From IMG/VR virus record IMGVR_UViG_3300005739_000025: DNA of 64,000 nt; one strand, written 5' to 3'. Every line of letters starts with the position of its first letter. Positions within the stretch are counted from its first letter, which is position 1. Both the position numbers and the translations under genes were made by a program. Source of the stretch: a virus. Taxonomy: Duplodnaviria; Caudoviricetes. Under the pieces are notes generated by a model that was given only the letters and a program-made list of their open reading frames with translations, was not told where the DNA came from and searched no databases. Below are positions 543-62,797 of this stretch, piece by piece.

Positions 543-570
543 TTGATTATTTATATTTTAGACATATAAT
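543..570 (+). promoter_or_regulatory. sigma70-type promoter
   Basis: TTGATT(543-548)-N16-TATAAT(565-570); ATG 8 nt downstream. Confidence 0.65.
548..555 (-). promoter_or_regulatory. T4-type late promoter TATAAATA
   Basis: Exact T4 gp55 consensus, 5 nt before ATG at 542. Confidence 0.7.
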
Positions 571-578
571 ATACAGAA

Positions 579-1238
579 ATGGATACGGTAATTTGTAGTT
601 TAACGAGAAATAAGGATAGATCCAATACAATATTATGGAGATCGTTGCAGAAAATAGGCGAGATTAAAATTAATATAGAAGATAACAACACTAAAAAAGG
701 TTTAAGTCAGTACTATAATGAGTGTATCGAAAAATTTAAAGATAGTGATTGTATAGTTTTCGTTCATGATGATGTTGATATTATTAGTTCTGATCTTTTA
801 TATCAACTCCGGGAAGGTTTTAAACGTTTTGATGTTATTGGTGTCGCTGGGTGTGTTAATCCTAAAATTTTAGATAGAAATTTATGGCATTGGATGGCCG
901 GAGATAGATCAAACTGCCGTGGAATAGCCGGGCACCCATATAGTGATTCTGAATTTTTCGTAACATCTTTCGGTCCTACACCTTCTAGAGTAGTAATTAT
1001 AGATGGAGTTTTAATGGCAATTAAAACTAAAAAGATTTACAATTCCGGAATACGATTTGACGAACAGTTTAGATTTCATCATTATGATATAGATTTTAGC
1101 TTGACCTGTAACACTAAAAAAGCTAAAATAGGGGTCTGGCCAATACTTATAAACCACCAATCACCTGGGCTAAAGGATTTTGACACAACATGGAACGAAA
1201 GTAATCAAAAATTTATAGACAAATGGAAAAACAAATAG
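579..1238 (+). CDS. GT-A fold glycosyltransferase (GT2-like, Glyco_tranf_2_5 type)
   Basis: YNECI...IVFVHDDVDI (DxD-type), DVIGVAG, IIDGVLMA, FDEQFRFHHYDIDFSL. Confidence 0.75.
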   Translation: MDTVICSLTRNKDRSNTILWRSLQKIGEIKINIEDNNTKKGLSQYYNECIEKFKDSDCIVFVHDDVDIISSDLLYQLREGFKRFDVIGVAGCVNPKILDRNLWHWMAGDRSNCRGIAGHPYSDSEFFVTSFGPTPSRVVIIDGVLMAIKTKKIYNSGIRFDEQFRFHHYDIDFSLTCNTKKAKIGVWPILINHQSPGLKDFDTTWNESNQKFIDKWKNK

Positions 1239-2548
1239 ACCAAGACCTTTACGAGTATATTATCTTCTATAATTGTCTTGTAGATAAAACGTATCTCTCT
1301 AGTATTAGTGATTACGTCAAACCCAGCATTTTTAAAAATAAAGATATTAAAGCTGTAATAGGTATTATTCTAGACTTCTTTAAAAAGAACGGCAACTTAC
1401 CCACAAACACTGAAATAAAGGTTTACCTCACTGACGATGCTCTTAAACAAAGCTTTAAAGCTGTACTCACTAAGCTTGTAGATATAGATAAAAAGTTTGA
1501 TAAAGAAGAACTTTATAAAAATACTGAAACTTTTCTTAAGGAAAGGCACGTCTTTAATACATTATTACAAGCCGCTGAACATTTAGATTCCAAAAATTTA
1601 GATACACACAAGCTTTTAGCTAAGATTGAACACGCTGTTAATATAGATCTATCTACAAACTATGGTACAAACCTACTAATAGATATAGATAACTTTTTAA
1701 CAGAGTTAAACAGAGATGAACCAGTTATACCTACCGGTTGGAAGTGGATGGATAATAAGCTTGATGGAGGTTTTTTAGAGAAAGGTCGAGCGCTTTATCT
1801 GTTTATGGGCGAAACTAACGTGGGCAAGAGTATCTTTTTAGGTAATATTGCTACGAACATAGCATTACAAGGTAAAAAAGTCTTGCTACTTACATTTGAA
1901 ATGTCGGAAGTAATGTATTCAAAGAGGCTGGCATCTTCTATTACCAAGATTCCTATGTCAGATCTCAGAAAAGATCAACAAACACTTAAACAATTACTTG
2001 TTGAGACAAGAGAACAAAAGAAAAATTCTGCCATATTAATTAAAGAATTTCCCCCTTCAACAGTTTCCCCCGGACAAGTTAGTGCATTTATTAAAAAACT
2101 TATTCAATCAGGCTTTCAACCTGATGCTATAGTTTTAGATTATTTAAATCTACTTAATTCACCTCATGGTATTAACAGTTATGAGAGGGTTAAATACATT
2201 GCTGAAAAAGTTAGGGCTATGAGCTATGAATTTAATTGTCCTATTATTAGCGCTACACAGGTTAATAGATCAGGCTTTAATGTTGATCAACCTGGTTTAG
2301 AAACAATATCAGAAAGTACTGGTCTTGCTGCTACAGCAGATGCAATATTTACAATATGGCAGAAAGACGAGGATAAAGAGATGGGAATAGTTAATCTTGG
2401 TTGTGTTAAGAATAGATTTGGTCCTAATTTTGGTAATACAGTATTAAGAGTAGACTATTATACACTATCTCTTAAGGAAGACGAAATGATTTCCGGTACC
2501 GATGAAGCGCTGGACTTCTCAAAATCTATAAACGCTTTAGTTGAATGA
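1223..2548 (+). CDS. gp41: Replicative DNA helicase, T4 gp41/DnaB-like
   Basis: IPTGWKWMD, Walker A GETNVGKS, TFEMS, Walker B IVLDYLN, SATQVNRSG, SESTGL..TAD, KNRFG. Confidence 0.93.
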   Translation: MEKQIDQDLYEYIIFYNCLVDKTYLSSISDYVKPSIFKNKDIKAVIGIILDFFKKNGNLPTNTEIKVYLTDDALKQSFKAVLTKLVDIDKKFDKEELYKNTETFLKERHVFNTLLQAAEHLDSKNLDTHKLLAKIEHAVNIDLSTNYGTNLLIDIDNFLTELNRDEPVIPTGWKWMDNKLDGGFLEKGRALYLFMGETNVGKSIFLGNIATNIALQGKKVLLLTFEMSEVMYSKRLASSITKIPMSDLRKDQQTLKQLLVETREQKKNSAILIKEFPPSTVSPGQVSAFIKKLIQSGFQPDAIVLDYLNLLNSPHGINSYERVKYIAEKVRAMSYEFNCPIISATQVNRSGFNVDQPGLETISESTGLAATADAIFTIWQKDEDKEMGIVNLGCVKNRFGPNFGNTVLRVDYYTLSLKEDEMISGTDEALDFSKSINALVE

Positions 2549-2570
2549 TTTTAATATTGGAATATATATT
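2541..2570 (+). promoter_or_regulatory. Possible sigma70-type promoter (weaker)
   Basis: TTGAAT(2541-2546)-N18-TATATT(2565-2570); GTG 5 nt downstream. Confidence 0.4.
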
Positions 2571-8006: not shown

Positions 8007-8359
8007 TGTTCTTTAAAAAGAGGTTTTTACCCACTAATAGAGGCTTCTACGCAGTTTTACATGGTACTTATAAAGGCAATTTTTTTGTTTTTATAAAACA
8101 AAACATTACCAGTTGTGTTTGTTTTACTTTACCAGATAAAGAAGTTCTTACTGTCCCGTTAAATGATTTTTCTAAGGCACTCTCTTCTGGAATTATAGAA
8201 TTTATAGAAAAACTACCTAAAAAGGTATATACAACAGTTGAAGAAGAATTTATTAAGATAAATAAGTTTAATGGATATAGTAGAGCCCAGAAAAATAACA
8301 AGCCCGATAAGCGGCTTACCAGTAGAGCCCAGAATTGTAACAATACAGCACGGAAATAA
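8006..8359 (+). CDS. Hypothetical protein
   Basis: 117-aa ORF, TAATG coupling to previous gene. Confidence 0.6.
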   Translation: MFFKKRFLPTNRGFYAVLHGTYKGNFFVFIKQNITSCVCFTLPDKEVLTVPLNDFSKALSSGIIEFIEKLPKKVYTTVEEEFIKINKFNGYSRAQKNNKPDKRLTSRAQNCNNTARK

Positions 8360-9520: not shown

Positions 9521-9917
9521 GATAACCTTTAAGAGCTTCTGCTAATGCTGATAGATCAACCGCCACTCTAGAAATTCTCTTTGATTCAGAGCTGGCAATT
9601 TTTTCAAACATTGTATCACAGTCACAATTGTGTAGTTTGGTTTGAACAGAAGATTCATTAACTCCGTTTAAGTATTCTACAAATTCTTCAATTTTAGAAA
9701 TCCAATTAGTAAGCTCAGATTTTTGTGAATCTAGACTTTGTTGTTTTAAAGCTGCGATATCTTCGCCTGGCTTGATCCCAGCACCAAGATCTTCAGGAGC
9801 AACACCTGGCTCTAATTCACCTTGAAGAGCATCCTCTTCACCTGTGTCCTGAGGTGGCTTAATTTCTTCTTCATCTTGTTCTAATAGAACTTTGAAACGA
9901 TCTTTAAATAGTGACAT
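9498..9917 (-). CDS. Acidic hypothetical late protein, candidate capsid-internal protein
   Basis: N-terminus MSLFKDRFKVLLEQ; late-promoter variant ATAAGTA (9924-9930) 6 nt upstream. Confidence 0.7.
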   Translation of the reverse strand: MSLFKDRFKVLLEQDEEEIKPPQDTGEEDALQGELEPGVAPEDLGAGIKPGEDIAALKQQSLDSQKSELTNWISKIEEFVEYLNGVNESSVQTKLHNCDCDTMFEKIASSESKRISRVAVDLSALAEALKGYLIAGSND

Positions 9918-9944
9918 ATAAATTACTTATTCTAACCAAGCTAA

Positions 9945-9952
9945 AATAAATA
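9945..9952 (+). promoter_or_regulatory. Late promoter core AATAAATA
   Basis: 6 nt before ATG 9959. Confidence 0.55.
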
Positions 9953-9958
9953 ATTAAA

Positions 9959-10345
9959 ATGGGTAAAAATAATAAAATGATTAGCGAAGATGTTCAGAAC
10001 ATATATAACAAATGGGTGTCTGGAATAGCTAAAAGAGAAGCGCCACCAGAAGTAATAACAGCAGCTGATATTCAGAATAGATATAGAAATGGTTTAAACT
10101 ATACAGCGCCTCAATCGCTTCCTTATCCTTTAACTAATCTTTTAGATTTTTTAGGTAACTTATTTGTTAAGTCTGCTGAAATGAGACATTCTTTGGGAAG
10201 TGCTATTACGTATCCAGTAATTAAAGAAAAAAAATCTAGTGTAGATGCAATTAAAAAACTAAATGAAAAATTAAGAGAGATTCAGGACATTATATACTCT
10301 TGCACTGAAGAGCTTAATCAAATAGTTGAAAATAAAGAAAAGTAG
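9959..10345 (+). CDS. Hypothetical late protein
   Basis: 128 aa, N-terminal MISE motif, C-terminal coiled coil. Confidence 0.7.
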   Translation: MGKNNKMISEDVQNIYNKWVSGIAKREAPPEVITAADIQNRYRNGLNYTAPQSLPYPLTNLLDFLGNLFVKSAEMRHSLGSAITYPVIKEKKSSVDAIKKLNEKLREIQDIIYSCTEELNQIVENKEK

Positions 10346-12245: not shown

Positions 12246-12613
12246 TTTTTAAGTGCAAAGGTTTTTAAGTTATTGTCCCAAACTATAGCTATACCCGTGT
12301 TTCCAAGCTTTCTAGGTACATCTTTAGTTACTTTATAAATTTTATATTTCTTACAAATTTGTTTTAATTGAACACCATTTAAGGGTTCATAGTGAGAGAA
12401 TTTGTTTTTAATTTTTTCTACTTTTTGAATGATATCTGGGTCCGGTTTAATATATTCCGGAACGGTTTGAAGATTTTTTCTTAATAAGGGGTTTCTGATA
12501 ATATTAGCTCTATGTCTATGACCTTTTTCTTGAGCAGGATCTTTTATAGGAGCAAAGAAATTAACGTAGCCGCCATTCCAGGTCTGTTCAAAAAATTTTT
12601 TAAACGTTAACAT
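12242..12613 (-). CDS. Basic hypothetical late protein, candidate internal protein
   Basis: N-terminus MLTFKKFFEQ resembles T4 IP targeting peptides; TAAATA (12620-12625) 6 nt upstream. Confidence 0.72.
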   Translation of the reverse strand: MLTFKKFFEQTWNGGYVNFFAPIKDPAQEKGHRHRANIIRNPLLRKNLQTVPEYIKPDPDIIQKVEKIKNKFSHYEPLNGVQLKQICKKYKIYKVTKDVPRKLGNTGIAIVWDNNLKTFALKK

Positions 12614-12628
12614 TTAAAGTATTTAGTC

Positions 12629-12658
12629 AAAAAAAATCCCCTAGCATAACTAGGGGAT
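12629..12658 (-). terminator. Rho-independent terminator
   Basis: 9-bp perfect stem ATCCCCTAG/CTAGGGGAT, 5-nt loop, followed by a T run on the minus strand; downstream of the 12686-13534 gene. Confidence 0.8.
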
Positions 12659-12685: not shown

Positions 12686-13534
12686 TTATGAGAATAAGTT
12701 ATGTCCAGCTTTAATGGAACTACTTACTTTGTTATCTTTCTTTGTAAGAACGTGACCTTTGTCACCAAGAGCTGTTAAGTCAGAAGCTTTTGTTACGTCT
12801 GTTGAAGCTTTGCCTTTTGAAGCTTTGATGTTGCCAGCAGCGTCCATACCTTTTGTTAGCTTTTTGCCGTGCTCATCAGATAATTTTTCTGCTTCTACTT
12901 CTTCAGAATAACTATCTTCCTCTTCTTCATCTTCGTCTTCGACTTCTTCATCTTCGTCTTCTACTTCTTCTTCGTCTTCATCTTTGTTCTCTTCACCACC
13001 TTCTGTGTCGATTTCGAGATCTTCTAGGTCTGACTCTTCATCACTACCTAAATCTTCTTCACCACCAACTGCAGCTTGAAGAACGTCGATTAATGTTTGT
13101 GCTGTTTCTTTGTCTAAAGTAACTGTTACTTCGTTACCACCCATGTCTTCTTCACCACCGAAGTCGGTATCGACATCTGTATCAGATTCCATATCGCCTT
13201 CTGGACCGGCACTAGGACCGAGATCTAACTCGTCATCCATTACGTTTTCGAAAAGTTTATCAAATTTAGATTTCATAAAACTATTTATATTTTCGCGTAC
13301 ATTTTTTCTACTACTTTTTTTACTTTTTTTAACCTTTTTGAGACCTTTAACTTTTTCTGGGCCAGAATCTTTCATTGTTTTTGGCTCCTTAACAGTCTCA
13401 CCAGCTTTTGGAAATGTACCTTTAGGAAATTTTTTAGCTGATTTCTTTTCTTCTACTAATTCTGAACCACCTGTATTTTTGTACATTGATTCATATAGTG
13501 AACTGATGTCAGTAATAGATTTAATTCTTGTCAT
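12686..13534 (-). CDS. Lys-rich/acidic late protein, candidate prohead core/internal protein
   Basis: 282 aa; LYE motif near N-terminus; basic N- and C-terminal parts flanking a D/E-rich core; ATAAATA (13540-13546) 5 nt upstream. Confidence 0.8.
   Translation of the reverse strand: MTRIKSITDISSLYESMYKNTGGSELVEEKKSAKKFPKGTFPKAGETVKEPKTMKDSGPEKVKGLKKVKKSKKSSRKNVRENINSFMKSKFDKLFENVMDDELDLGPSAGPEGDMESDTDVDTDFGGEEDMGGNEVTVTLDKETAQTLIDVLQAAVGGEEDLGSDEESDLEDLEIDTEGGEENKDEDEEEVEDEDEEVEDEDEEEEDSYSEEVEAEKLSDEHGKKLTKGMDAAGNIKASKGKASTDVTKASDLTALGDKGHVLTKKDNKVSSSIKAGHNLFS
12922..12961. repeat. 21-nt-period tandem duplication encoding VEDEDEE
   Basis: cttcttcatcttcgtcttc at 12922-12940 and 12943-12961. 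Confidence 0.7.
13282..13289 (-). promoter_or_regulatory. Internal late promoter TATAAATA driving in-frame ATG at 13276
   Basis: TATAAATA-GTTTT-ATG, same geometry as other late genes. Confidence 0.6.
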
Positions 13535-13557
13535 ATAGTTATTTATTGCTAACGGTG

Positions 13558-13563
13558 TAAATA
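13558..13563 (+). promoter_or_regulatory. Late promoter core TAAATA (terminase)
   Basis: 6 nt before ATG 13570; back-to-back with minus-strand ATAAATA 13540-13546. Confidence 0.55.
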
Positions 13564-13569
13564 TTTACA

Positions 13570-15318
13570 ATGTCAAAGAATAAAGATTTAGGTACAGGGG
13601 AAAAGGCCTATCTCGGTAATAGTAATATTCCTGCTCCGGGTTCTAGATACGAATATACTCCGGAAATGATTGCAGAGATTAAAAAATGTAAAAAGTCTCT
13701 TTTACATTTTGCCGAAAATCATTTCTATATAGTTAACGTTGATGAGGGTAGACAACAAATTAAATTAAGAAAATATCAAAAAAGAATTCTCAAAACATTA
13801 AAAAACGATAGATTTGTTGTTTTATTAGCAAGTAGACAGATAGGTAAGAGTAGTATTCTTACTATATATATGTTGTGGGTAGCATTATTTAATGATGACC
13901 AAAATATCTTATTAGTAGCTAACAAAGAGGTAACAGCTAAAGAAATTTTTAAAAGAATTAAACTAGCGTATGAAATGTTGCCAAACTATTTAAAGTCACC
14001 TGTTGTAAAATATGCAGAGACATCAATGTCTTTAACAAATGGTAGCACAATTAGTATATCTACTACAACATCAGATACAGGTCGTGGTTCGTCTGTGTCA
14101 CTATTATGTCTTGACGAGCTTGCGTTTATTGAACCAGGAATGCTTGAAGCGTTTTGGGCTTCTGTTTACCCTGTAATTTCCTCATCTAAAAAGGCTAAAA
14201 TTTTAGCTGTTAGTACTCCAAATGGTGTTGGTAACCTATTTCATTCATTATATTCAGGAGCAATTAAGAAAGGGGATGATTGGAATGGGTGGAAGGCAGA
14301 AAGAGTGGACTGGTGGGAAGTACCTGATAGAGATGAAGAATGGAAGGAAAGAACTATTCGAACAATGGGTTCTCGTGAAAAATTCGCTCAAGAGTTTGAA
14401 TGTGTATTCTTATCTTCAGGGGAAAGCGCTCTCGATGAAGGTCTTTACGAAAACTTACAATTAAACATTTATGATCCGAAATATGTTTACGACGACGGGT
14501 CTTACTTAATCTGGGAGCAGCCATCAAATGATAAAATTTATGCAGTTGGAGTTGACGTCGGGGAGGGGTTAAAACTTAATGCATCTGTTGCTCAAATTTT
14601 AGATATTACCGATCTTTCTAATATTAAGCAAGTTGCGGAATATTACACTACATCTTTACCACCATATAATTTTACACAAAAATTACAAGAAGTTTTAACC
14701 CATTGGGGTAAACCTGTTGTAGCAATTGAAAGAAATAATTGTGGAGCGCAAGTTGTAGACAATTTAAGAAATGTTTATGGTTATGAAAATATTATAACTT
14801 GGGGTGCTAAGACTGAAGAAAAAAATATATACCAAAGATTAGGAATTGTATCTCATACTAATACCAAATATCGAGGCATTATGAATATGAGATATTGGGT
14901 TAATCAATTAAGAGTAGTAAAAATTCATGATATTAAAACATTAAATGAATTTAAAGATTTTGTAAGACACCCCAACAACACATGGTCAGGAAGAACAGCA
15001 AACACCTTGGACGATAGAGTAATGGCAATGGTATGGGCTTTAATTTGTCTTGAAAACGATATTTGTGCTAGATATTTTGAAATTATCAAACTAGACGACA
15101 ATATGAGACCAGAAGTTATAAAGAGCTTAGATTATGGTTTTAAAGGTATAGTAAGTCCAATTGGCGTTTACAATAATGAAGCAGATCAAATAGGGGTACA
15201 GCCGCTTCCTGTTGTGTATCAAACAAAAAATGATGATGCAGAACAATTTGATAATCCCGATTTAGAAGATTTGTATGAGCAGGGCTGGAGATTCCCAGAA
15301 CTAAATAATAGATACTAG
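13570..15318 (+). CDS. gp17: Terminase large subunit, T4 gp17-like
   Basis: ASRQIGKS Walker A, LCLDELAF Walker B, VSTPNG..N.F, FAQEFEC, GVDVGEG, IERNN, DDRVMA. Confidence 0.96.
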   Translation: MSKNKDLGTGEKAYLGNSNIPAPGSRYEYTPEMIAEIKKCKKSLLHFAENHFYIVNVDEGRQQIKLRKYQKRILKTLKNDRFVVLLASRQIGKSSILTIYMLWVALFNDDQNILLVANKEVTAKEIFKRIKLAYEMLPNYLKSPVVKYAETSMSLTNGSTISISTTTSDTGRGSSVSLLCLDELAFIEPGMLEAFWASVYPVISSSKKAKILAVSTPNGVGNLFHSLYSGAIKKGDDWNGWKAERVDWWEVPDRDEEWKERTIRTMGSREKFAQEFECVFLSSGESALDEGLYENLQLNIYDPKYVYDDGSYLIWEQPSNDKIYAVGVDVGEGLKLNASVAQILDITDLSNIKQVAEYYTTSLPPYNFTQKLQEVLTHWGKPVVAIERNNCGAQVVDNLRNVYGYENIITWGAKTEEKNIYQRLGIVSHTNTKYRGIMNMRYWVNQLRVVKIHDIKTLNEFKDFVRHPNNTWSGRTANTLDDRVMAMVWALICLENDICARYFEIIKLDDNMRPEVIKSLDYGFKGIVSPIGVYNNEADQIGVQPLPVVYQTKNDDAEQFDNPDLEDLYEQGWRFPELNNRY

Positions 15319-15929: not shown

Positions 15930-15936
15930 ATAAATA
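15930..15936 (+). promoter_or_regulatory. Late promoter ATAAATA (sheath)
   Basis: ATAAATA-ATTTT-ATG. Confidence 0.65.
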
Positions 15937-15941
15937 ATTTT

Positions 15942-18371: not shown

Positions 18372-18378
18372 ATAAATA
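18372..18378 (+). promoter_or_regulatory. Late promoter ATAAATA (tube)
   Basis: ATAAATA-ATTTT-ATG. Confidence 0.65.
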
Positions 18379-18383
18379 ATTTT

Positions 18384-18986: not shown

Positions 18987-19025
18987 TATTAATCAATAAC
19001 TAATCGTGCCTATTAAATAATATTA

Positions 19026-20692: not shown

Positions 20693-20696
20693 TTAA

Positions 20697-26728: not shown

Positions 26729-26744
26729 TTAATTAGTTATTATG

Positions 26745-39131: not shown

Positions 39132-39134
39132 ATA
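39127..39134 (+). promoter_or_regulatory. Late promoter TATAAATA (fibre 1)
   Basis: 7 nt before ATG 39142. Confidence 0.6.
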
Positions 39135-39141
39135 AAAAAAT

Positions 39142-41834: not shown

Positions 41835-41859
41835 TTTTTATTATAAATAAATATATTAT

Positions 41860-43964: not shown

Positions 43965-43982
43965 GTTGTTAAATAATATTAT

Positions 43983-47638: not shown

Positions 47639-47654
47639 TATTAAATAATATAAG

Positions 47655-50600
47655 ATGTATTCAAAATATATTTTATCTAGTAATTGGAAAAGTTTGTCCA
47701 GCGAATATGCTTTTGATAAGGATTTAAACTTTAATAACGTTTCAATTTATATTGACGGTAATATTGATTTAAATTTTGCTCCTACTTTGTCAGGTTTAAG
47801 TGATTACAATAACAATAACTATTCTTTATTTTTTTTAACTAAAAATACTAATGTTAATAATTTTATTACAAAAGAATATCCTATATTAGATATTAATAAA
47901 CAAACAGTTTTGTTGGCTACTGATTTTAGAAATAATCTAGTTTCTGATATAACGTTGTTTTTAAAATTAGAAAATGACAATTTATCTTTTGTTAAAATTA
48001 CGGAATTAAATAACGATAACTTTTTTGAAATTGATTATGTAACTGCAAATGAGCTTTACGTCTATACAGTAAAAAAAGGAATTTTTTATTATATTTGTGT
48101 AGATGATATAACAACTTCTATATCAGTATTATCATCAGATAATCCAAACAATCTTACAAATTTTCAAAAAAATAAAATTAGACTTAACTATCTATTTGAC
48201 AAAAAAAGAAAGAGCATAGTACTCTATAAAGTAATACAAAATGATACATATGTATTAACAAAAGACCCATTAAACGTATTCGTTTTATTAAAAATCCAAT
48301 TAAATGATGTAATTGAACAAAATTTTTTAAATTTGGTAAAAATTAACGAGTTGCCTCCTTCCAGTTTATTAGTGAATTGGGTGTCTTATTTAGACGATGT
48401 TAATAAAAATTCTAATACAATAAATAGCTCCAGATCACTCTATAATATATCAAATAATTATTTAATTCATAGTGAGTACAACACTATAAGAAATAACTTT
48501 ATACAACACAATATAATAACCCTTAAAAATCAATCTGATGTTGATGGTCAATTTTTAAGAAATAATATTAACAATAATTTTAGAGAATATAGAACTATAT
48601 TAGGGGGTGGAAATCGCGAAGAAGGCTATAACAATATTTCATTAGGCTATACCTCAAAGTACTACCCTTTAAAAATTTACAGCGATAAAACTACGTGGTT
48701 TCATATACCATACAACAAAGAAATAATTTCAACAAATATAAACAATTCAAATTTTAAAATAAACGGTGCTATACCAGGCACAGCTCCAATTTACAGCGAT
48801 AAAATTTTTAAAAAAGCAGCAAATTATGCATTTAACTCTAACATGGGAAATTCTGAAGATGATGAACAGTCTGGTACTTGGCTTTGTGCCTGGTTAAGCG
48901 GTGGACCTCTAAATTCTGTTTGGGTTGATCGTTATTACAATCCTGATACGTTTACAGCTTTTGCAGCCGCTAAATATTCTACCAATGTTTCTTATACACC
49001 AAAATATCTAGGAAAGTATAAAGCTGGTATTACAGACGTAGTAAGTAACCTAACATTAGAACCTGGAGTTTGGTACGCATATAGTAGAATTGGTAAAAAA
49101 ACTGCTAATAATATAATAAACGGTTTAAATGGTAGCTTAATATCAAAAGGCTTTTCATTATATCAAACAAAAAATAAATCAAATATATTACAAAACACTG
49201 ATACTGAAGGCGAAGCTTCTTACAATTTTAATAAAAATACCTTTGCTTCTACTTCTATAGAAAAACTTACAAGTTTTAACAACTTTACTATATCGTTTTT
49301 TGGTGCTAGAGAAAACTGGGATAATTACGATACCTTTCAAATGTTAGGCAATTATCTTGATAGTGGTTTTGGAGTGTTTAATGATTTATCTATTAACCCT
49401 AATTTGTATTATGTTAATGGTAAAATATTATATATATTAAATAAGAATTATAAAAATATACTCACCATAGATACAAACTACTATTTAAATGTTAGTGGGT
49501 ATAATATAAAAGGTTTTTTTAGAAGAGATTTAAACAGTAACGTTCACGTTATAACAGACAACAATTATTTATTGGAATTTAATGCGAACGGGACTATTGT
49601 AGATTTAAGCAATTTATCAAACGTTTTAAGCGGTAATATTACTTCTGTAACAAATAATAATATAAACGGCTATATATACACAGATCAAAGAAGGGTTTAT
49701 CAGATAAATTTATTTTCCAATTTTGTTAAAGATATCACTAATGATTTAAGAGTAAAGACTGGTATAAACTTTAATTATCAAAACAGTAATACAAATTTTA
49801 ATATAGTAACCGATGTTTACGACAATGTATATATAATAAATGGTATATATCCCATTTTAAAAGGAACAAACATATATTTTAAATCTCCTGATTCTTTATT
49901 TTTACAAGTTTACGATATAAACGAAAATTCGATAAATATCTTTTTATCTGGTTCAAATAGTGAAAAAATAATGTCGTATAATTTTGACAATAGTGGATTT
50001 ACTTATTTATTATACAAAAATAGAATATCTGAATATGACGCATTAGGTAATTACATTAAGGACTTGTATATAAATGTAAAAAATCGAAGCTTGTCAGGTC
50101 TTAATTTTATAGTACAGAATATAGGTGGTAATAGTCACCTATCCGTACATGTTATTGATAGGTTTGATAGAAATCTAATGTATAATGTCTCTTTGAGTTC
50201 AGTAACATTAGTTGATGAAAACTATAACAATGTTTTTAATTTGAGTGGCGCAGATTTGCAAGATAAAATTTATGACATTTCCAATTACAATTATAATCAA
50301 GGTATTATTACAAGTAACTCTCCAATAGCTAGTTACAAGTTTATATTAAAATTGTTTAATCAACTAAACTATGAAGACGCTAGAATCCTAACCCATAACG
50401 TATTAGGCGAATATTTAAATACTGGTGAGCATCATTTTGCAATAACTTTAAATACCATAAAAGGCGAATACAATTTATATATTGATGGTAAATTATTCAG
50501 TAAAAAGACTTTCACACCTAAAAAATATAGTTTCACAAAATTACTAACAGACACTATTTTAGCTGGCGCTACACCTTTTTATGGAGGTGTTTTATATAGT

Positions 50601-51029: not shown

Positions 51030-52801
51030 TGAATAGTATAATAAAAGAATTTAATAAATCGGGGTTAATACTCGATAAGACTACACAGTCTTTAACAGCT
51101 TTACCTTATGATTATATAAACGTAAAATTTAAGTCAAACTCATACGTTACTTCTAAAAACTTTAACGAGGCTATAGATAAATTATATTACAATTTAATGT
51201 ATATTTATAGAGGGTGTAAAGTTGGGTCTTTTAATCTTTTTCAAACTTATTTTTATACCATATCTACTAATAAAATATCTCCTAATTATTCTGGAATTCA
51301 AAATAATTACGAACCTACTACTATATCATTAGAAGAACTTTCTGCATCTAAGGTTGGGCATATTTTACCTTATGATATAGTAAGAAGAGGTACGTATTTA
51401 TTTTTTGCTAGCGGTGGTTTAATGACCTGTTTATTTACTAGTAGAGATATTAATAAGCTAATTTTTAGTACATCTAATATAGATCCGTTGTCTGGTGATA
51501 TAAAATTTAGAAACATTTCAGATATAAAATCTGATTATTATGAAAATTTATATGTAGTTGATTCAGAGTATAACAATATATATCAATATAGAATAGATAA
51601 TTTTATATCTAGAGAAAACATATACAGAGAAAGATTATTTATTAAAAATTTAATAGGCGGTCAAGGCGAGTCAAAAGACAATAATAAATTCTTTAAGTTA
51701 AAAAATGTAGCGGTAAATAAAAATTATGTTGTGGCTCAAGACGTTGGAAATCAATCATTTAAAATATTTGATAAAAATTTAAATTGGAAAAGTACAAACG
51801 TTTTTAAAAAGTTGTTTGATAAATACGAATATTTTGATGATATTTTATTAGATGATGCTAATAATTTAATTTGTGCAAAATCCAATATTATTATTTTATT
51901 AAAATATGACAACGGTTTTTTTAGAACGTATAGTGAAAATAAAATAACTCAATATTTACAAAGTGATGAATATATAAAACAGTTAATTTTATCGCCGTCA
52001 GATAAAAATGTAATTTATATTGTAACTAATTTAACAGTAAAAAAAGCTTGGACCACTAATTTAAATTATGTAATAGGTAGTTTTAATTATAATTCACAAT
52101 CAAATATAAACGTAAAATGGATGTCAGTATCACCTGGTGGTAATAACAACGACATAGTTGCTCTGTATTCTCATATAGGCGATAAAGAACAGCTAAGTGT
52201 AAGTTTTGATTCTATAAATTATAGCTCCTTATTTAATGTTGAAGATTTTAACATATATACAAAAGATGAGGTAAAATTAAACAAAGATGAATATGTTCAG
52301 AGTTGGACTATTATAAAAAATTTACAAAAAATATACTATAACTGCTTAATTGTAATACAAAATATTAAATACAAATTTATTGAAAAAGAAGGTATTAATT
52401 ACCCTGTAATAAGTGATAAACTTTATAACACAAGCTTTTTAGCCTATTCTTCTCCTATAGAATTTGAAAAAGATTTTGATATAGGTATAAATGAAATTTT
52501 TCAAGCAGAAGTAATTAATAGATGTATTAAAATTTTGGTTGAGCTTCAAAGTGTTATTTTGATTTATATTATTAATAATAAAAATAATAAAAAGTACTAT
52601 TCACCGGAACCTGAAAAGAGCGGCCTACCAGTAAAAAAGTATTTATACTTTGCTGACGAAAGTTTAATTTTAATTCCAAACCCAGCAAAGCTGGATATTT
52701 TTCAAGAAATAACCCCAGGAGCGGGCATATTAAATAGCTTAGGAGGTGCCCCATACTCTGGTATAGAAGGTATTAGTATAACAGACGGGGTGGTTATCTA
52801 A
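51029..52801 (+). CDS. Virion protein with NHL-like repeats
   Basis: ISDIKSDYYENLYVVDSEYN.IY, VAVNKNYVVAQDVGN..FKIFD. Confidence 0.55.
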   Translation: MNSIIKEFNKSGLILDKTTQSLTALPYDYINVKFKSNSYVTSKNFNEAIDKLYYNLMYIYRGCKVGSFNLFQTYFYTISTNKISPNYSGIQNNYEPTTISLEELSASKVGHILPYDIVRRGTYLFFASGGLMTCLFTSRDINKLIFSTSNIDPLSGDIKFRNISDIKSDYYENLYVVDSEYNNIYQYRIDNFISRENIYRERLFIKNLIGGQGESKDNNKFFKLKNVAVNKNYVVAQDVGNQSFKIFDKNLNWKSTNVFKKLFDKYEYFDDILLDDANNLICAKSNIIILLKYDNGFFRTYSENKITQYLQSDEYIKQLILSPSDKNVIYIVTNLTVKKAWTTNLNYVIGSFNYNSQSNINVKWMSVSPGGNNNDIVALYSHIGDKEQLSVSFDSINYSSLFNVEDFNIYTKDEVKLNKDEYVQSWTIIKNLQKIYYNCLIVIQNIKYKFIEKEGINYPVISDKLYNTSFLAYSSPIEFEKDFDIGINEIFQAEVINRCIKILVELQSVILIYIINNKNNKKYYSPEPEKSGLPVKKYLYFADESLILIPNPAKLDIFQEITPGAGILNSLGGAPYSGIEGISITDGVVI

Positions 52802-52810
52802 ATATAATAT

Positions 52811-53608
52811 ATGGCAGGTAGCTTTACATTTCATAGTAAATTTCATAGAGCAAATCACCACTCTCTATCATCTTTCGATATAGTAGATTCTGGATTTGAT
52901 CCTATAGCATCTAGAAAATTTCCTTTTTTAGGTATATTTTACAATAAGCTTACCGACGAAAAAAGAACATTTGATATAAACACTAACAGTTATGATTGGT
53001 GGTCTGGGTTTACAACTATGTTTACCTATTCTGCCATATGGATGCCAACACTGTCACTTTATACCACGGTAAAAACTTTAAGTGATAATTGGAACTTAGG
53101 TTACTCTGGATATACTACATTAAAAGCTAATAGTGGTAGATATGAGAGTACTTATACCACTGTATGTTCTTATAGTGCCGAGTGGGGATCACCCTACTTA
53201 ATGTTTACAAACAAAGTTCAAGAGTACACCCACGCTAAAACATTTTCAGGTCAAGAATTGTTTCCTAATACAGAAATACCAGGATTATCTGTGTATGACT
53301 GGGACTTAGATAAACAACAAGTAGCGTTTATAAAAATTAAAAATGATATACAGATAAAAGCTCCGGTAGAAGGTACTATGATAACCGGTGGTCTTTATAC
53401 TTTGGTTATTTATCAAAACAATGAAGACGTACAAAATGTAGGATATACTGTAGATTTTGAGCCTGTTTATAGATTTAACGAAAGATTTACTGGGGAGGAA
53501 GAAACAATAAATGTAAATAAGTCGCTTTCGGGCATTACAATGTATAACTTTTTGGCTGTAGGCGATTACATGTATGGGGATGTGACATTCCTTAGCGGTA
53601 ATTATTAA
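52811..53608 (+). CDS. Fibre-associated protein, short paralog of the next gene's N-terminus
   Basis: FHSKFHRANHH...DPIAS..FPFLG; WNLGYSGYTTL; GGLYTLVI; TAAATA 52799-52804. Confidence 0.65.
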   Translation: MAGSFTFHSKFHRANHHSLSSFDIVDSGFDPIASRKFPFLGIFYNKLTDEKRTFDINTNSYDWWSGFTTMFTYSAIWMPTLSLYTTVKTLSDNWNLGYSGYTTLKANSGRYESTYTTVCSYSAEWGSPYLMFTNKVQEYTHAKTFSGQELFPNTEIPGLSVYDWDLDKQQVAFIKIKNDIQIKAPVEGTMITGGLYTLVIYQNNEDVQNVGYTVDFEPVYRFNERFTGEEETINVNKSLSGITMYNFLAVGDYMYGDVTFLSGNY

Positions 53609-56600: not shown

Positions 56601-56949
56601 TGATAGATATACTTCTTTTACAAATTTACTATCAACAGATTCAACATATTTGTCGGCAAATAAAAAGTACGTAGTAGTAACTAGATTTAACGCCAAAAAC
56701 CCTTCTAGACAAATTATATATGTCAATAATAGAACATCTCAGTATATTAATACTTTTAGAGGAAATACTGTTACTATTCCTTCAAGCTCGTATTTTTTAA
56801 CTGTTGGTAAAAATCCGGCAGAAAATGGTGGGTTTTCAAATGTTAGGTTGTATGAATATTATCTTTATGATAGATATCTCGACTTATCTGAGGTAAGAAA
56901 AATAAGTAACTTCTTAATTACGAAGTACGATGATTATAAAATTGGATAA
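53611..56949 (+). CDS. Large fibre/adhesin with permuted L-type lectin inserted in a C-terminal LamG domain
   Basis: FHNKWHSFNH..DPIAS; lectin motifs RLTP..GAIFY, GEGLSF, SISFDT..N..DPDDNH, WIDYD; LamG LYEYYLYDRYL. Confidence 0.75.
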   Translation: MSNAIFHNKWHSFNHYTLPLEGYPDSATDPIASKEYPFRGTFFNVISGDYGFTTTGLTITDFGSGFTTTPSVSLRTLNEGDVIFQPEFNIGVDVVTRKLSSFTIKYGGITKSYGSLVFTPKNGDVIRIRPEIFLEFSSISAISNSSGWEFYTSLTRNNSADWGKYFIVRDTTISLSSIWDLGFVGYTHLRATSGKYTSVYTQTSSLSPAGVYNFFGREPVDNFNLVGGTGWHIALSSATHRTNIGYQVDSRQKVAVPVRVFENNLRNIVWDLSAQTVYHNLTSSNSLTARGLINPKKGGKYTMWIYVDSCPVETTNFVFDKRDYNIQLKQLDGTTRFTNNILALTANFVTRVDCVYDGNKMLCKATRYRIFKATDDDLYFQGTGIRFVDPRSFANKSPVYVNPTKENVFGPGSPSDPIIGGGGINILSASNEFTETSSFYIPGTGLNFKFLNSDFRYFSYNLINAEWPSKTDLTFNKELTGSFDRVIGTLSAGDWTLPQFAINLIASPNENAVTDNILLSAYPTSAYGGPWELATSNIRSVVTCTSSYIIEIYSGRDRDISSMFINDIRVFPEPKFLSGMYQPFNYRNERTARIKFERIQQDYSIDVIYGPQAPLTVNGGVLWFNSMNDFTINRTATNTLTTWNNNTRYSNLPRVGENSAFVGFAASTSTAGRDNHWIHNFNWSSSLNELPFQKFLGKSTLQNATLSSTYASLTSIRLTPNLTNRRGAIFYNVPVYFTDSKGLPISWSCNFTFSIGGGITRGEGLSFIIQGVSKNTIGGIANGMGYSGIPNSLSISFDTLANGSYDPDDNHIELNINGDVTNPNGDLPINNNINGVDIELRGTNGVSDLRYCWIDYDASNSTMFVYLTSVNIKPFSPVLQYAGSIVDIIKNNDNPETVFKLESRNVSTAPALSTNRSLRGLVLSADKFLESNYDITPLSSNSSFFNSFTTFTVFETPQTFPLSSVIWWIGDYSYDRVTKGYGLILSGRQLYTIGNFNDRYTSFTNLLSTDSTYLSANKKYVVVTRFNAKNPSRQIIYVNNRTSQYINTFRGNTVTIPSSSYFLTVGKNPAENGGFSNVRLYEYYLYDRYLDLSEVRKISNFLITKYDDYKIG

Positions 56950-56958
56950 ATATAACAT

Positions 56959-57960
56959 ATGATGGATTGTACAACATCTTTGCCCACTTCAGCTTTCTAT
57001 TCAACGAATTTAAGTACTATAGTTGATTCCTATACTAGAATGGGTCAAAGAATAAGCAGAACTCTTGGTGCACCCATGGTGAGTATAGAAATTCATCAAG
57101 ATCAACTTAATGAAAATATAGCTATAGCTTGTGAAATGTTTACAAAGTATGCAGGTTATACAAGAGAGTTTTTAGTCTTTAATTCTGATTTATATGAAAA
57201 AGATAAAGGTATAAGATTAGACGCTTTGTTTTCTATTTCTAAAGACTTTAATGCTAGATTAACCTTTAAAGACGTTCCTGACGACGTTAGAGCTGCTTAT
57301 ACGATAGCAAAAATGATTATTGGTGATCCCAACAAACCTTACATATATCAAGTAGCAGATCCGGATAGTGATTCGTTAAAATTGTTAAACAGTTATGATT
57401 ATCTGGTTAAAGATTATAGAAAAGTAATTTCTGTTTTAGACTTCGAAGAAGGTAGCTCGACCGGGGTTAATACACTCTTTACTATAGAACAATCGCTTGC
57501 ACAACAAACTTATTTTTCCTATTCTATGGGTAATTACGGGTTTGATCTTATTAGCTGGGTTGTATTAAAAAATTGGCTAGATACAAGGGAAAAAGTCTTA
57601 TCATTAAGAAGAAGTGTTTTGTTTGATGAAAGAACCCAATATATGAGAATGGTTCCTCAACCTAAACAAGGTTCATCTTCTCAATTTTATGGTGTGGTAT
57701 CATGTTATGTTGAAAGACCATTACAAGATATAATCAAAGAGCCTTGGGTTTATCAATACGCTTTAGCTTTAAGTAAAATTATATTAGGTAATAATAGAGG
57801 TAAATATCAAAACGTAGCTCTATTCGGTGGTGGTTCAATAAACTTTAATGATATTTTATCGCAAGGTTTAGAAGAGAAAAAGACATTAGAAGAAAGACTA
57901 TTTACTGGTGCCTCGCCAGGTTTTGGCGATGCAGAGCCTGTTGACTTTTTTGTTGGGTAA
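56959..57960 (+). CDS. gp13: Neck protein, T4 gp13-like
   Basis: RTLGAPMVSIEIHQDQL, WVYQYALALSK..LG..RGKY...LFGG..IN, E...LEE..G; ATAAATA 56946-56952. Confidence 0.9.
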   Translation: MMDCTTSLPTSAFYSTNLSTIVDSYTRMGQRISRTLGAPMVSIEIHQDQLNENIAIACEMFTKYAGYTREFLVFNSDLYEKDKGIRLDALFSISKDFNARLTFKDVPDDVRAAYTIAKMIIGDPNKPYIYQVADPDSDSLKLLNSYDYLVKDYRKVISVLDFEEGSSTGVNTLFTIEQSLAQQTYFSYSMGNYGFDLISWVVLKNWLDTREKVLSLRRSVLFDERTQYMRMVPQPKQGSSSQFYGVVSCYVERPLQDIIKEPWVYQYALALSKIILGNNRGKYQNVALFGGGSINFNDILSQGLEEKKTLEERLFTGASPGFGDAEPVDFFVG

Positions 57961-57972
57961 TTAATTAATTTT

Positions 57973-58155
57973 ATGGTTCATATTGAACGGGATTCAAAAT
58001 TCAAAAATTTTGAAAATCAAGTAACTGATCAATTATTAGACATTATAAAAACTATAGAGCCAGAAAAAAAAGAAGTATCAAGTTCTCTTTCAGTTAATTT
58101 TGTATCAATTGAGGACGCTGCAAAAGAGCTTCTACAAATGGGTGTAAAAGCATGA
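57973..58155 (+). CDS. Hypothetical protein
   Basis: 60 aa; TAATTA-ATTTT-ATG (late-like); ATGA overlap with gp4. Confidence 0.55.
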   Translation: MVHIERDSKFKNFENQVTDQLLDIIKTIEPEKKEVSSSLSVNFVSIEDAAKELLQMGVKA

Positions 58156-58633: not shown

Positions 58634-58640
58634 ATAAATA
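58634..58640 (+). promoter_or_regulatory. Late promoter ATAAATA (gp21), with a second TATAAATA at 58624-58631
   Basis: ATAAATA-ATTTT-ATG. Confidence 0.65.
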
Positions 58641-58645
58641 ATTTT

Positions 58646-59320
58646 ATGGCATTAAAACTTTTAGTTGAACAACCTGCTCCGGAAGAAGAATACCAGTATG
58701 TAGTTGAGGAGCAAAATAATAACAAACCAGCTAATTTATACATTACAGGACCTTACATGCAATGTGAGACTGTAAACAAGAATAAAAGAATTTATAGTGA
58801 AGGTGAAATGGATAGAGAGATTAACCGTTATATCTCTGAAATGGTTAAAACAAAAAGAGCTATGGGTGAGTTAAACCATCCCACAAAAGCCGAAGTTGAT
58901 TTAGAGAGAGCATGTCACTTAGTAGTTGATTTGAGAAAAGAAGGTAACACCTATTACGGCAAATCAAAAGTCTTGTCTACACCAACAGGTTTAATTGTTA
59001 AGTCATTAATCAATGATGGTGTTAAAGTCGGTATGTCTTCTAGAGCGTTAGGAAAGCTATCTGAGCAATCAAATGGTATTAATCGTGTCTCAGAATTTAG
59101 ATTAGTTGCTGTTGATTGTGTTGCTGATCCTTCTTGTCCATCAGCATTTGTAAATGGTATTTTAGAGTCAAAACAATTCGTTTTAAGGGAAGATGGTAGA
59201 CTAGAAGAACACTATGACAGATTTAGTGAGTCACTTTCTTCATTACCTAAAAAAGATGTTGAGGCATTTTTAAAGGAACAAATTTTAAGCTTTATATCAA
59301 AAATAAGCAGAGTGCTATAA
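58646..59320 (+). CDS. gp21: Prohead protease
   Basis: YITGPYMQ..NKNKRIY, GELNHP, GVKVGMSSRALG, AVDCVADPS.PSAFV.GILE. Confidence 0.96.
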   Translation: MALKLLVEQPAPEEEYQYVVEEQNNNKPANLYITGPYMQCETVNKNKRIYSEGEMDREINRYISEMVKTKRAMGELNHPTKAEVDLERACHLVVDLRKEGNTYYGKSKVLSTPTGLIVKSLINDGVKVGMSSRALGKLSEQSNGINRVSEFRLVAVDCVADPSCPSAFVNGILESKQFVLREDGRLEEHYDRFSESLSSLPKKDVEAFLKEQILSFISKISRVL

Positions 59321-59337: not shown

Positions 59338-59499
59338 ATGAGTAATCAATCACAATTATCAACAGGTGAGAAAAAATTAATATCTCAATTTATACTCAAT
59401 TTGGGTAGTAAAAATTATAACAACGCCCATAAATATTTACGTAAAATTGTTGAGCAAAAACTCAATAAAAGAATAGAAAAAACAATAAATAATTTTTAA
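59338..59499 (+). CDS. Small prohead core protein, gp67-like (53 aa; absent from ORF track)
   Basis: ISQFILNLGSKNYNNAHKYLRKIVEQKLNKRI fits the gp67 helical pattern; ATAAATA 59320-59326 upstream. Confidence 0.65.
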   Translation: MSNQSQLSTGEKKLISQFILNLGSKNYNNAHKYLRKIVEQKLNKRIEKTINNF

Positions 59500-59500
59500 T

Positions 59501-60379
59501 ATGGCTATATCAGATCTTCTCAAAAACGCAACAAATGAGATTCTTTCAGAAGAAGTTCTAAAAGAAATCGAAAATGCATTTAACAAATCCGTTCAGGACA
59601 AAGTTAAAATTCACGTAGAAAAAGCTCTTGCAGAACAAGACGCTGATTACGCAGATAAATTAAAAAATCTTTTAGAAGTAGTCGACAAAGATCACACAAA
59701 TAAACTTCTAAAAGTTGTAGAAGCTATTGATACAAATCATAGCCATAAATTAAAACTTCTCGTTAATAAGTTCAATAAAGAGCTTAACAACAATGCCCAA
59801 TCATTTAAAGAGGGTATGATCAATAATATCTCAACATATTTGGAGGCTTACTTAGATGAAAGCATTCCTGCTGAGAAATTAAATGAAGCTGTTAAAGCTA
59901 AAAAAGCACAAGTTGTGCTAGAACAAATTAGAGAGATTTTAGGCGTAGATGCCGCAATCGCTAAAAAAGCTGTCAAAGACGCAATTATCGATGGCAAACG
60001 CCAAATTGATGAAGCTCACAAAAAGCTTGAAGCTGCTCAGAAAGAGTTACAGCAAATTAAAGAAGAATATTCTGTATCAAAAGCAGAGTTAGTTTTAGAG
60101 AAAAAGCTAACTTCTGTTGATGGTAAGAAAAAAGAATATATCAAAAAAGTAATGAAAGGTAAATCAGCAGATTTCATCTCTGAGAACTTTGATTACGCTG
60201 TAAATCTATTCGATAAATCCGAATCTGAGAGGCTTCAAACTCTTAAAGAAGAGGCCATTACTGACACAGAATCACAAAGAGTTGATCGTCCAGTAATTGA
60301 AGAAGAAGTACAAGTTCCACAAGAATTTAATACAGCTTCTTACATGTCACCTTATCTTCAAGAGCTAAACAAATTTTAG
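59501..60379 (+). CDS. gp22: Prohead scaffolding protein
   Basis: Coiled-coil, between gp21 and gp23; ISTYLEAY, C-terminal MSPYLQEL; ATAAATA 59485-59491. Confidence 0.88.
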   Translation: MAISDLLKNATNEILSEEVLKEIENAFNKSVQDKVKIHVEKALAEQDADYADKLKNLLEVVDKDHTNKLLKVVEAIDTNHSHKLKLLVNKFNKELNNNAQSFKEGMINNISTYLEAYLDESIPAEKLNEAVKAKKAQVVLEQIREILGVDAAIAKKAVKDAIIDGKRQIDEAHKKLEAAQKELQQIKEEYSVSKAELVLEKKLTSVDGKKKEYIKKVMKGKSADFISENFDYAVNLFDKSESERLQTLKEEAITDTESQRVDRPVIEEEVQVPQEFNTASYMSPYLQELNKF

Positions 60380-61967: not shown

Positions 61968-61992
61968 GATTTTAGAAGTTAGGCAAATCACT

Positions 61993-62026
61993 AACCCTGG
62001 TTCGAAAGAGCCGGGGTTATTTTTTT
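61993..62026 (+). terminator. Rho-independent terminator after gp23
   Basis: AACCCTGGTTC-GAAA-GAGCCGGGGTT stem (with G-U pairs) + T7. Confidence 0.88.
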
Positions 62027-62777
62027 ACATATTACTAACAATACGCTTTAATGTATTATTAAAGCTAAGACTTTCCATAAAAAACTTATCGTAAGCACTA
62101 TTAATTAAATCAATAAGTTTATCTATTACATGTTTACTTCTCAGTCTTTTAAATAAAAGATTTTCTAAAGCAAATTCTCCGCTTTTTGTAAGAGCCTCTT
62201 TTCTTATTTTTACTATTTTATCTTTTAGTATTTTGCCCTTTTTATATATTAGTCTAATTTCATCTTTTGTATTAGCTCTATTAAGCCTATCTACCAATCT
62301 GTTTATCAAATCTATATAATAAAATTCTTTGTTGGATAATAATTGTTCATCAATTTTCTGAGGTGGATCATATTTTGGTTTTTTAATCCATTTATCAAAC
62401 TTTAAACTATAAACCCCAGTAGATATATGTGCTTCACCTTCATCTTCAAAATACATCTCAACTTCATGACCTCTAATAAAAATATTATGCCTTAAGTTCC
62501 AAACAAAGCGTAAGCCATTTAATGCTTCCTTTACAACATCTGTGTCTCCGCTTATTTCACTAAATTTAGTAATGATATGTATGTCTAGGTCAGAAAACTT
62601 GTTATAATTGAAATTCGCAAGGGATCCGGTTAGTCTAATATCAGTTACTGGTATGTTTAAATCGCTTTCTTTAATAAAGTTATCTACTATCTTAAGTATT
62701 TTTCTTCTGATACTTTTATCAAATTTAAAATTTTTAAAATAAGATGGATTTAATGTTTTTTTATAAAAAACGCTCAT
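62025..62777 (-). CDS. Pol-beta superfamily nucleotidyltransferase
   Basis: LTGSLANFNY...SDLDIH (GS..DxD), third acidic residue in EVEMY; TATAAATA 62784-62791 6 nt upstream. Confidence 0.85.
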   Translation of the reverse strand: MSVFYKKTLNPSYFKNFKFDKSIRRKILKIVDNFIKESDLNIPVTDIRLTGSLANFNYNKFSDLDIHIITKFSEISGDTDVVKEALNGLRFVWNLRHNIFIRGHEVEMYFEDEGEAHISTGVYSLKFDKWIKKPKYDPPQKIDEQLLSNKEFYYIDLINRLVDRLNRANTKDEIRLIYKKGKILKDKIVKIRKEALTKSGEFALENLLFKRLRSKHVIDKLIDLINSAYDKFFMESLSFNNTLKRIVSNM

Positions 62778-62797
62778 TATTATTATTTATATGTAAT

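Follow-up and report, generated by a model that had tools for sequence, protein, structure and literature searches.

A gp55-type late promoter abutting start codons in an uncultured T4-like phage and the prediction of leaderless late mRNAs

The late promoters of phage T4 consist of the octamer TATAAATA, which is used by the sigma factor gp55 together with the co-activator gp33 and the gp45 clamp. In T4, gp55 flips bases -12, -9 and -8, and the octamer thus spans positions -13 to -6 (PMC7892883), about one helical turn before the transcription start (PMC2988020). The late-promoter consensus of the T4-like cyanophages is NATAAATA (PMC2984593). In T4 the box lies ~20–30 nt before the ATG and is followed by a leader with a Shine-Dalgarno (SD) motif, and in the cyanophages S-PM2 and Syn9 and the Methylophilales phage Melnitz, which have the relaxed NATAAATA consensus, the boxes lie 15–30 nt upstream. 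Here, we describe a window of 64,000 nt (the whole stretch of DNA that was analysed, taken from the minus strand of the 148,804-bp IMG/VR virus record IMGVR_UViG_3300005739_000025, positions 50417-114416). The window belongs to a distant T4-like myovirus from freshwater, in which the core of the late promoter, (A)TAAATA, abuts the start codons of virion genes and is followed by no SD motif. The promoter is probably placed in such a way that the late mRNAs begin at the AUG or 1–2 nt before it, are leaderless or near-leaderless, and are loaded by ribosomes without an SD motif.

Bacterial ribosomes are normally able to translate leaderless mRNAs, and the Thermus phage P23-45 also has leaderless middle and late mRNAs. 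In the Thermus phage phiYS40, the later temporal classes of transcripts are mostly leaderless, and changes in the levels of IF2 and IF3 were proposed to favour them (PMC3594737). Although phiYS40 is a precedent for a leaderless phage programme, it is not related to the present phage and infects a thermophile, and its promoters are used by the host sigma-A with phage modifiers rather than by a gp55-type factor. Its leaderless ends were mapped experimentally, whereas those of the present phage are predicted. In bacterial genomes, a -10 box next to an open reading frame (ORF) is an accepted computational mark of leaderless genes (PMC3160421; PMC12340547). The leaderless genes of Actinobacteria and Deinococcus-Thermus have the -10 box ~10 bp before the start, with a TAnnnT-type element and no SD motif, as in the present phage. 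Unlike in these bacteria, the late element is a phage-sigma box and not a host -10, and the arrangement serves nearly every viral transcription unit. T4 late transcription and leaderless translation have each been well studied, but separately, and they are fused in this phage. A search of the literature turned up no account of such a fusion of gp55-type promoters to start codons in T4-like phages.

TAAATA boxes at a fixed distance from start codons

The initial annotation listed 22 TAAATA sites and three one-mismatch variants at 5–7 nt from an ATG or GTG, and their coordinates, strands and distances are all borne out (Table 1). Three of the sites need a qualification. Site 34725 is real, but it is followed by ATGATG, which gives 3 nt to the first ATG and 6 nt to the second; site 8258 is real, but has only an ORF of 59 amino acids (aa) behind it, which overlaps the end of 8006-8359; and site 13282(-) is real, but precedes an internal in-frame start (Met87) of gene 12686-13534(-) rather than a gene head. 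Two sites with a 9-nt spacer, 59486 (ATG 59501) and 15303 (GTG 15318), were missing from that list.

Within the window, TAAATA-N5-7-ATG occurs 25 times, compared with 9.59 ± 3.23 times in 100 dinucleotide shuffles, none of which (0/100) reached 25. These matches comprise 19 starts of called genes, the 59-aa ORF, the in-frame internal start and four out-of-frame intragenic positions; site 20686, which precedes a GTG and lies outside the ATG-only pattern, is a 20th called-gene site. Record-wide searches cover the accessible ~149 kb of the linear record, which is incomplete (~70% by CheckV). Among the 145 ORF-called starts of the record, 48 have TAAATA 3–10 nt upstream, with a sharp peak of the spacer at 5 nt (20 starts), followed by 6 nt (13), 7 nt (6) and 8 nt (5), which places 44/145 at 5–8 nt. 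A record-wide test that is independent of start calls and uses a second-order Markov null finds an ATG at offset 5–7 after TAAATA in 43 cases, versus 19.5 ± 4.0 expected (z ~6). The other 14 hexamers with four A and two T show no such excess, the shifted register ATAAAT excepted. The enrichment over an AT-matched background on which the initial annotation had made its claim depend is thus found in both the window and the record.

The pattern could in principle be the chance outcome of an A/T-rich genome combined with the picking of the longest ORF, and the G+C content of 32% and the four out-of-frame matches within genes are in line with such an origin. We give it a negligible probability, since no shuffle reaches the observed count, the deviation persists when start calls are left aside, no other hexamer of equal composition behaves alike, and the pattern is kept across 80 related contigs. 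The shuffles and the conservation together refute a chance origin.

The relatives are 80 IMG/VR contigs from marine and freshwater settings (868 kb), which were found with the sheath protein at 43–77% identity. SD-like motifs were scored as AGGA, GGAG or GAGG at positions -18 to -4, with random 15-mers as background. The sheath orthologues have 50 distinct upstream contexts, 41 of which place the box 5–7 nt from the ATG, with no SD motif and with spacers of differing letters. The box lies 8–12 nt from the ATG in a further four contexts. In the last five it is missing or farther than 12 nt from the ATG, and SD-like motifs are confined to four of those five. The 868 kb contain 487 TAAATA boxes that stand before the first ATG of an ORF; the spacer is 5 nt in 172 cases, 6 nt in 97 and 7 nt in 48, and none of the 345 near sites has an SD-like 4-mer. 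Per contig, 14–67% of the ORF starts are box-adjacent and 0–23% have an SD-like motif.

Reference genomes were run through the same script, in which sites at 4–8 nt from the start are near and those at 12–45 nt are distant, as in T4. In T4, near sites are absent (0) and 37 distant ones are present, 29 of them with an SD-like motif, and ~54% of all T4 starts are SD-like, which agrees with the premise of the initial annotation that T4 late mRNAs carry SD leaders. The present phage resembles T4 in the (A)TAAATA core, the absence of a -35 element, the presence of genes for a gp55 homologue and a gp44 clamp loader, and the virion genes that the boxes head. In contrast to T4, the box abuts the start codon, an SD motif is missing, and the first two bases of the octamer are relaxed. 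Syn9 and Melnitz, which together with S-PM2 have the wider phage group and the aquatic setting in common with this phage, possess 0 and 3 near sites, respectively.

The cultured SAR11 myophage HTVC008M (Pelagibacter phage; NC_020484) has 16 near sites and 12 distant sites, and 9 of the 12 distant sites have an SD-like motif. Its genome contains 13 ATAAATA-N5-ATG units without an SD motif (ATGs at 6280, 7562, 11972, 19456, 31132, 49760, 75559, 75830, 142360 and others), 12 of which have a pyrimidine at -1; we found no mention of these units in the literature. As in the present phage, virion genes are among them, namely baseplate and tail-completion genes. Unlike in the present phage, the N5 units of HTVC008M are a minority: 41% of its starts are SD-like, and many of its late genes have the box 16–22 nt upstream plus AAGGAG. 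The box-at-ATG arrangement is absent in the classical models, a minority in HTVC008M and dominant in the clade described here.

TAAATA as a T4-type late promoter

We take (A)TAAATA to be the -10-like core of a late promoter of the T4 kind. A logo built from 46 sites, in which TAAATA itself is fixed by the selection of the sites, reads (A)TAAATA(A)(T), with an A before the box in 31/46; positions -30 to -2 are otherwise unconserved, and a -35 element is lacking. Within the window, the complete T4 octamer is infrequent (3 plus-strand and 12 minus-strand occurrences). Shortly beyond the edge of the window, at record positions 127123-127671(-), lies a gene for a gp55 homologue. The protein matches phrog_234 ('late sigma transcription factor'; E 8e-26), T4 gp55 (E 2.5e-9 by phmmer) and, weakly, Sigma70_r2. 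A helicase-size gene and gp47/gp46-size genes are its neighbours, and the setting is the same in HTVC008M. The gene for the gp44 clamp loader, which is part of the late-transcription and replication apparatus of T4, lies within the window (Table 1). The box is present at virion genes (terminase, sheath, tube, baseplate, fibre, adaptor and protease) and absent at the helicase, SSB, primase, polymerase, UvsX, ThyX and dUTPase genes. The equation of TAAATA with the T4 late promoter, as made in the initial annotation, is upheld by the gp55 homologue, the lack of a -35 element and the virion genes that are headed by the box.

TAAATA is depleted inside genes on both strands, with a ratio of 0.58 in the sense direction (z -5.5) and 0.63 in the antisense direction (z -5.8). 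The ratios for the other 14 hexamers of this composition are 0.75–1.28, with a clearly low value for the overlapping ATAAAT alone. Depletion on both strands fits a signal at the DNA level and not a translation signal at the RNA level. This bears on the alternative that TAAATA and its A/T-only spacer form an SD-independent ribosome-binding or enhancer element in the RNA (A/U-rich, S1-type) rather than a promoter. Such an element would explain the fixed distance to the start codon, the A/U-rich context and the lack of SD motifs, and A-rich upstream contexts replace the SD motif in some bacterial groups (PMC3160421). We nevertheless consider an RNA element very improbable, because the motif is the T4-family late consensus in a phage that encodes a gp55 homologue, the intragenic avoidance is as strong antisense as sense, and the box is limited to virion genes. 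Moreover, the relatives and HTVC008M also have the box 16–25 nt upstream, followed by an SD motif, and the early genes have an equally spaced -10-type motif of a different, unrelated kind, with a -35 TTG and N17.

Transcription start and ribosome loading

With the T4 geometry of -13 to -6, a 5-nt spacer puts the A of the ATG at +1. The initial annotation had placed +1 on the start codon or 1–2 nt before it on the basis of the spacing, and the T4 geometry, as checked in PMC7892883, agrees with that placement. At the spacer-5 sites of the phage and its relatives, the base at -1 is a pyrimidine in 94% (T 75%, C 19%), compared with 47% at starts without a box. Bacterial RNA polymerase prefers a pyrimidine at -1 and a purine at +1, and the 94% pyrimidine therefore agrees with a transcription start on the A of the ATG. 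In the class with a 7-nt spacer, the sixth base after the box is an A in 86% and is preceded by a pyrimidine, which predicts a leader of 2 nt.

SD-like 4-mers are found at 4.8% of the starts in the record, versus 5.9% of random 15-mers, and at 0 of the 48 TAAATA-adjacent starts. The spacers thus leave no SD motif, as had been noted at the outset from their near AT-only composition. The sole gene with a clear SD motif (AAAGGAG, with a 22-nt leader) lies at record positions 135289-135483 and encodes a 64-aa basic protein, to which Pfam assigns no family, ribosomal protein S21 included.

From the observed motif, its spacing and conservation, the intragenic avoidance, the lack of SD motifs and the gp55 homologue, we infer the position of the transcription start and the mode of ribosome loading. 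Host RNA polymerase with the phage gp55-like sigma factor would read (A)TAAATA, the last base of which is set 5 nt (less often 6–7 nt) before the start codon, and transcription would begin on the A of the ATG or 1–2 nt before it. Ribosomes would then load at the 5´-terminal AUG of the late mRNA without SD pairing, and the downstream genes of a unit would be served by stop/start overlap (re-initiation). The early and middle units would use sigma70-type TTGnnn-N17-TAnnnT promoters, whose distance to the ATG equals that of the late box.

Alternatively, the late promoter may be real and its closeness to the ATG a by-product of gene packing, such that most late protein would be translated from long read-through transcripts, through re-initiation or internal initiation that needs no SD motif, the form with a 5´-terminal AUG being minor. 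Packing is indeed tight. The phage-sigma promoter, which lacks a -35 element, takes up ~8 bp. At 39129-39131, 52799-52801 and 56947-56949, the preceding gene ends with the TAA of the box, and the stop codon, the promoter and the next start codon fit into 13–16 nt. Tandem gaps measure 8–40 nt, only four terminator-like sites are located upstream of the 145 genes, and 51 genes with stop/start overlap lack an SD motif, which means that SD-independent internal initiation must work in the host.

However, packing predicts neither the sharp 5-nt peak nor the 94% pyrimidine at -1, and HTVC008M has two discrete classes (5 nt without an SD motif; 16–22 nt with one) and no continuum. Genes in divergent gaps and the gene behind a terminator are also beyond the reach of read-through. 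Five divergent pairs have 35–51 bp between their start codons (window 543-578, 9918-9958, 13535-13569, 26729-26778 and 28766-28816), and these gaps hold little beyond two outward-facing boxes, which are late/late or late/sigma70-type; the 13532 and 13558 boxes stand back-to-back in a 35-bp gap. Gene 12242-12613(-) must start from its TAAATA box, because the terminator leaves 15 nt before the ATG. At thyX, a terminator is directly followed by TTGCAT-N17-TATAAT-5 nt-ATG. We consider it unlikely that the position of the box merely reflects gene packing, and favour leaderless or near-leaderless late mRNAs, for which the support is good although indirect.

Several observations weigh against a fully leaderless late programme driven by a T4-type apparatus. 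Because terminators are scarce, read-through transcripts probably carry most late genes as internal cistrons as well. The sites with 6–8 nt spacers (YAT-ATG) suggest transcription starts 1–2 nt upstream of the AUG, which would make these mRNAs near-leaderless. The major head protein, the most abundant of the late proteins, is encoded by a gene (60459-61967) that has no TAAATA box. Two components of the T4 late-transcription apparatus were not found in the accessible 149 kb of the incomplete record: there is no match to Syn9 gp33 by phmmer, and no gp45 by phmmer (T4 gp45) or with Pfam PF09116 and PF02916. The search for gp55 and gp33 proposed in the initial annotation was thus successful for gp55 and not for gp33. 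Among public sequencing runs, no RNA run with the phage sequence was found, and only four DNA runs share words with it, at ≤10% of the words.

Upstream of the major head protein gene (60380-60458), we note a TAAATT 7 nt from the start and a purine-rich AAAGGAAAGG further up. In cyanophages, the gp33 gene is a near neighbour of the SSB gene; a 92-aa ORF (3463-3741) upstream of the SSB gene of the present phage is without detectable similarity, and the positional candidates 3463-3741 and 3738-4415 gave no match by BLASTP, PHROGs or Pfam. The DNA polymerase (record 119608-122172) ends in ...DLFDLLSFDS, and an 84-aa protein (record 6412-6666) ends in ...LHSFFSID. By resemblance, the polymerase end looks like a clamp-binding tail, and the 84-aa protein may be a factor that binds the clamp, perhaps an analogue of gp33.

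Early and middle genes have TTGnnn-N16-18-TAnnnT, which ends 5–7 nt before the start codon. Such an early-type promoter is located at the helicase operon and at the DHH phosphoesterase, SSB, primase, dUTPase, polymerase, UvsX, ThyX and QueC genes. The loose raw pattern is weakly above its null (57 versus 45.9 ± 6.8), and the support for the early pattern comes from 19 operon-head genes with an early-type promoter at 4–8 nt. By this spacing, the early and middle messages are predicted to be leaderless too. Because the sigma70-like early promoters are as distant from the ATG as the late boxes, the common factor is the transcription start and not an RNA motif.

A late-specific or phage-imposed initiation mode, as suggested in the initial annotation, is not supported: the early sigma70-type promoters are equally spaced, and the 51 further genes are stop/start coupled. 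Translation factors had been named as objects of a search in the same connection (S1, S21 and the initiation factors), and the accessible 149 kb yielded no homologue of S21, S1, IF1 or IF3. Promoters set at the ATG without an SD motif are a genome-wide feature, which is indicative of a host proficient with leaderless mRNA and not of a late switch. In its broadest form, every unit, early or late, would start at its start codon and the remaining genes would be stop/start coupled, which would make this a widespread marine and freshwater T4-like clade without SD initiation, with loading at a 5´-terminal AUG as the main route in planktonic hosts. We put this forward tentatively, as a possibility that we doubt more than we believe.

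If the late mRNAs do begin at their start codons, the arrangement would account for the reported failure of late-promoter prediction in pelagimyophage genomes (PMC7029224). It would also provide gene finders with a strong start-codon signal in a very abundant aquatic phage group, and it would imply that the hosts, which for the relatives include SAR11, translate leaderless mRNA efficiently. HTVC008M is cultured and has 13 such units, which makes the idea testable at the bench.

Features of the window and gene content of the record

Table 1. Boxes, promoters and associated features, in window coordinates unless marked as record positions.
Feature	Position	Strand	Gene or remark
TAAATA + 5 nt + ATG	540..553	(-)	gene 3-542(-), runs off the window
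TAAATA + 6 nt + ATG	8259..8273	(+)	59-aa ORF 8271-8450 only; doubtful gene
Variant TAAGTA + 6 nt + ATG	9915..9930	(-)	gene 9498-9917(-)
TAAATA + 6 nt + ATG	9947..9961	(+)	gene 9959-10345, 128 aa
TAAATA + 6 nt + ATG	12611..12625	(-)	gene 12242-12613(-); box 3 nt past the T-run of the terminator
Intrinsic terminator CCCCTAG..CTAGGGG + T8	12629..12656	(-)	dG -16.4; next ATG 15 nt on
TAAATA + 5 nt + ATG (Met87), internal in-frame	13274..13287	(-)	within gene 12686-13534(-)
TAAATA + 5 nt + ATG	13532..13545	(-)	gene 12686-13534(-), 282 aa
TAAATA + 6 nt + ATG	13558..13572	(+)	large terminase gene 13570-15318
TAAATA + 9 nt + GTG	15303..15320	(+)	gene 15318-15902, tail-tube-like; weaker case
TAAATA + 5 nt + ATG	15931..15944	(+)	tail sheath gene 15942-18359
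TAAATA + 5 nt + ATG	18373..18386	(+)	tail tube gene 18384-18986
TAAATA + 6 nt + ATG	19014..19028	(+)	gene 19026-19907, weak tail-tube match
TAAATA + 5 nt + GTG	20686..20699	(+)	gene 20697-22118; box end shares bases with the preceding stop codon
Variant TAACTA + 5 nt + ATG	26726..26740	(-)	gene 26234-26728(-)
gp44-type clamp loader gene	27225..28160	(+)	without a TAAATA box of its own
TAAATA + 5 nt + ATG	28763..28776	(-)	gene 28157-28765(-), 202 aa
TAAATA + 5 nt + ATG	28806..28819	(+)	baseplate wedge subunit gene 28817-29287
TAAATA + 3 nt (first ATG) / 6 nt (second ATG)	34725..34739	(+)	gene 34734-39131, 1465 aa
TAAATA + 7 nt + ATG	39129..39144	(+)	tail-fibre gene 39142-40404
TAAATA + 6 nt + ATG	41848..41862	(+)	gene 41860-43713
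TAAATA + 7 nt + ATG	43970..43985	(+)	gene 43983-45968
TAAATA + 7 nt + ATG	47642..47657	(+)	gene 47655-51029, 1124 aa
TAAATA + 6 nt + ATG	52799..52813	(+)	gene 52811-53608
TAAATA + 6 nt + ATG	56947..56961	(+)	head-tail adaptor gene 56959-57960
Variant TAATTA + 5 nt + ATG	57962..57975	(+)	60-aa ORF 57973-58155
TAAATA + 5 nt + ATG	58635..58648	(+)	prohead protease gene 58646-59320
TAAATA + 9 nt + ATG	59486..59503	(+)	gene 59501-60379
TAAATA + 6 nt + ATG	62775..62789	(-)	gene 62025-62777(-)
Early-type promoters	543-578, 2540-2575, 4395-4429, 8445-8479, 10325-10359, 11165-11201, 26745-26778; record 114-133 kb		

Gene 12686-13534(-) takes the form of two nested late units, in which the outer box heads the 282-aa form and the inner box a 196-aa form. 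A short isoform from the inner Met87 start is possible. The orthologues of distant relatives align only from residue 80-83, which makes it likely that the inner start is ancestral, and the Lys-rich N-terminal 86 aa look like an add-on.

The large terminase shares 31–38% identity with the terminases of Pseudoalteromonas, Sinorhizobium, Methylophilales and Pelagibacter T4-like phages. PHROGs identifies genes for the sheath, tube, baseplate wedge, tail fibre, head-tail adaptor, prohead protease, major head protein and head closure, as well as for a gp41-type helicase, a gp32-type SSB, a gp61-type primase, a dUTPase and the gp44-type clamp loader. The genes for DNA polymerase, UvsX, UvsY, ThyX, QueC and the gp55 homologue are located in the record close to the window but outside it. 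No near DNA match to the window was found among GenBank phages, and Rfam gave zero matches on the window. The record carries two tRNAs of phage-type appearance.

With their -35 TTG and N17 spacing, the early promoters make a host among the Bacteroidota less likely. By analogy with HTVC008M, a SAR11-like host would be our guess. A ferredoxin-dependent oxidoreductase-like auxiliary gene (phrog_7278) is located at record positions 115400-116062, beside QueC and an amidotransferase-like gene, and is a possible clue to the host.

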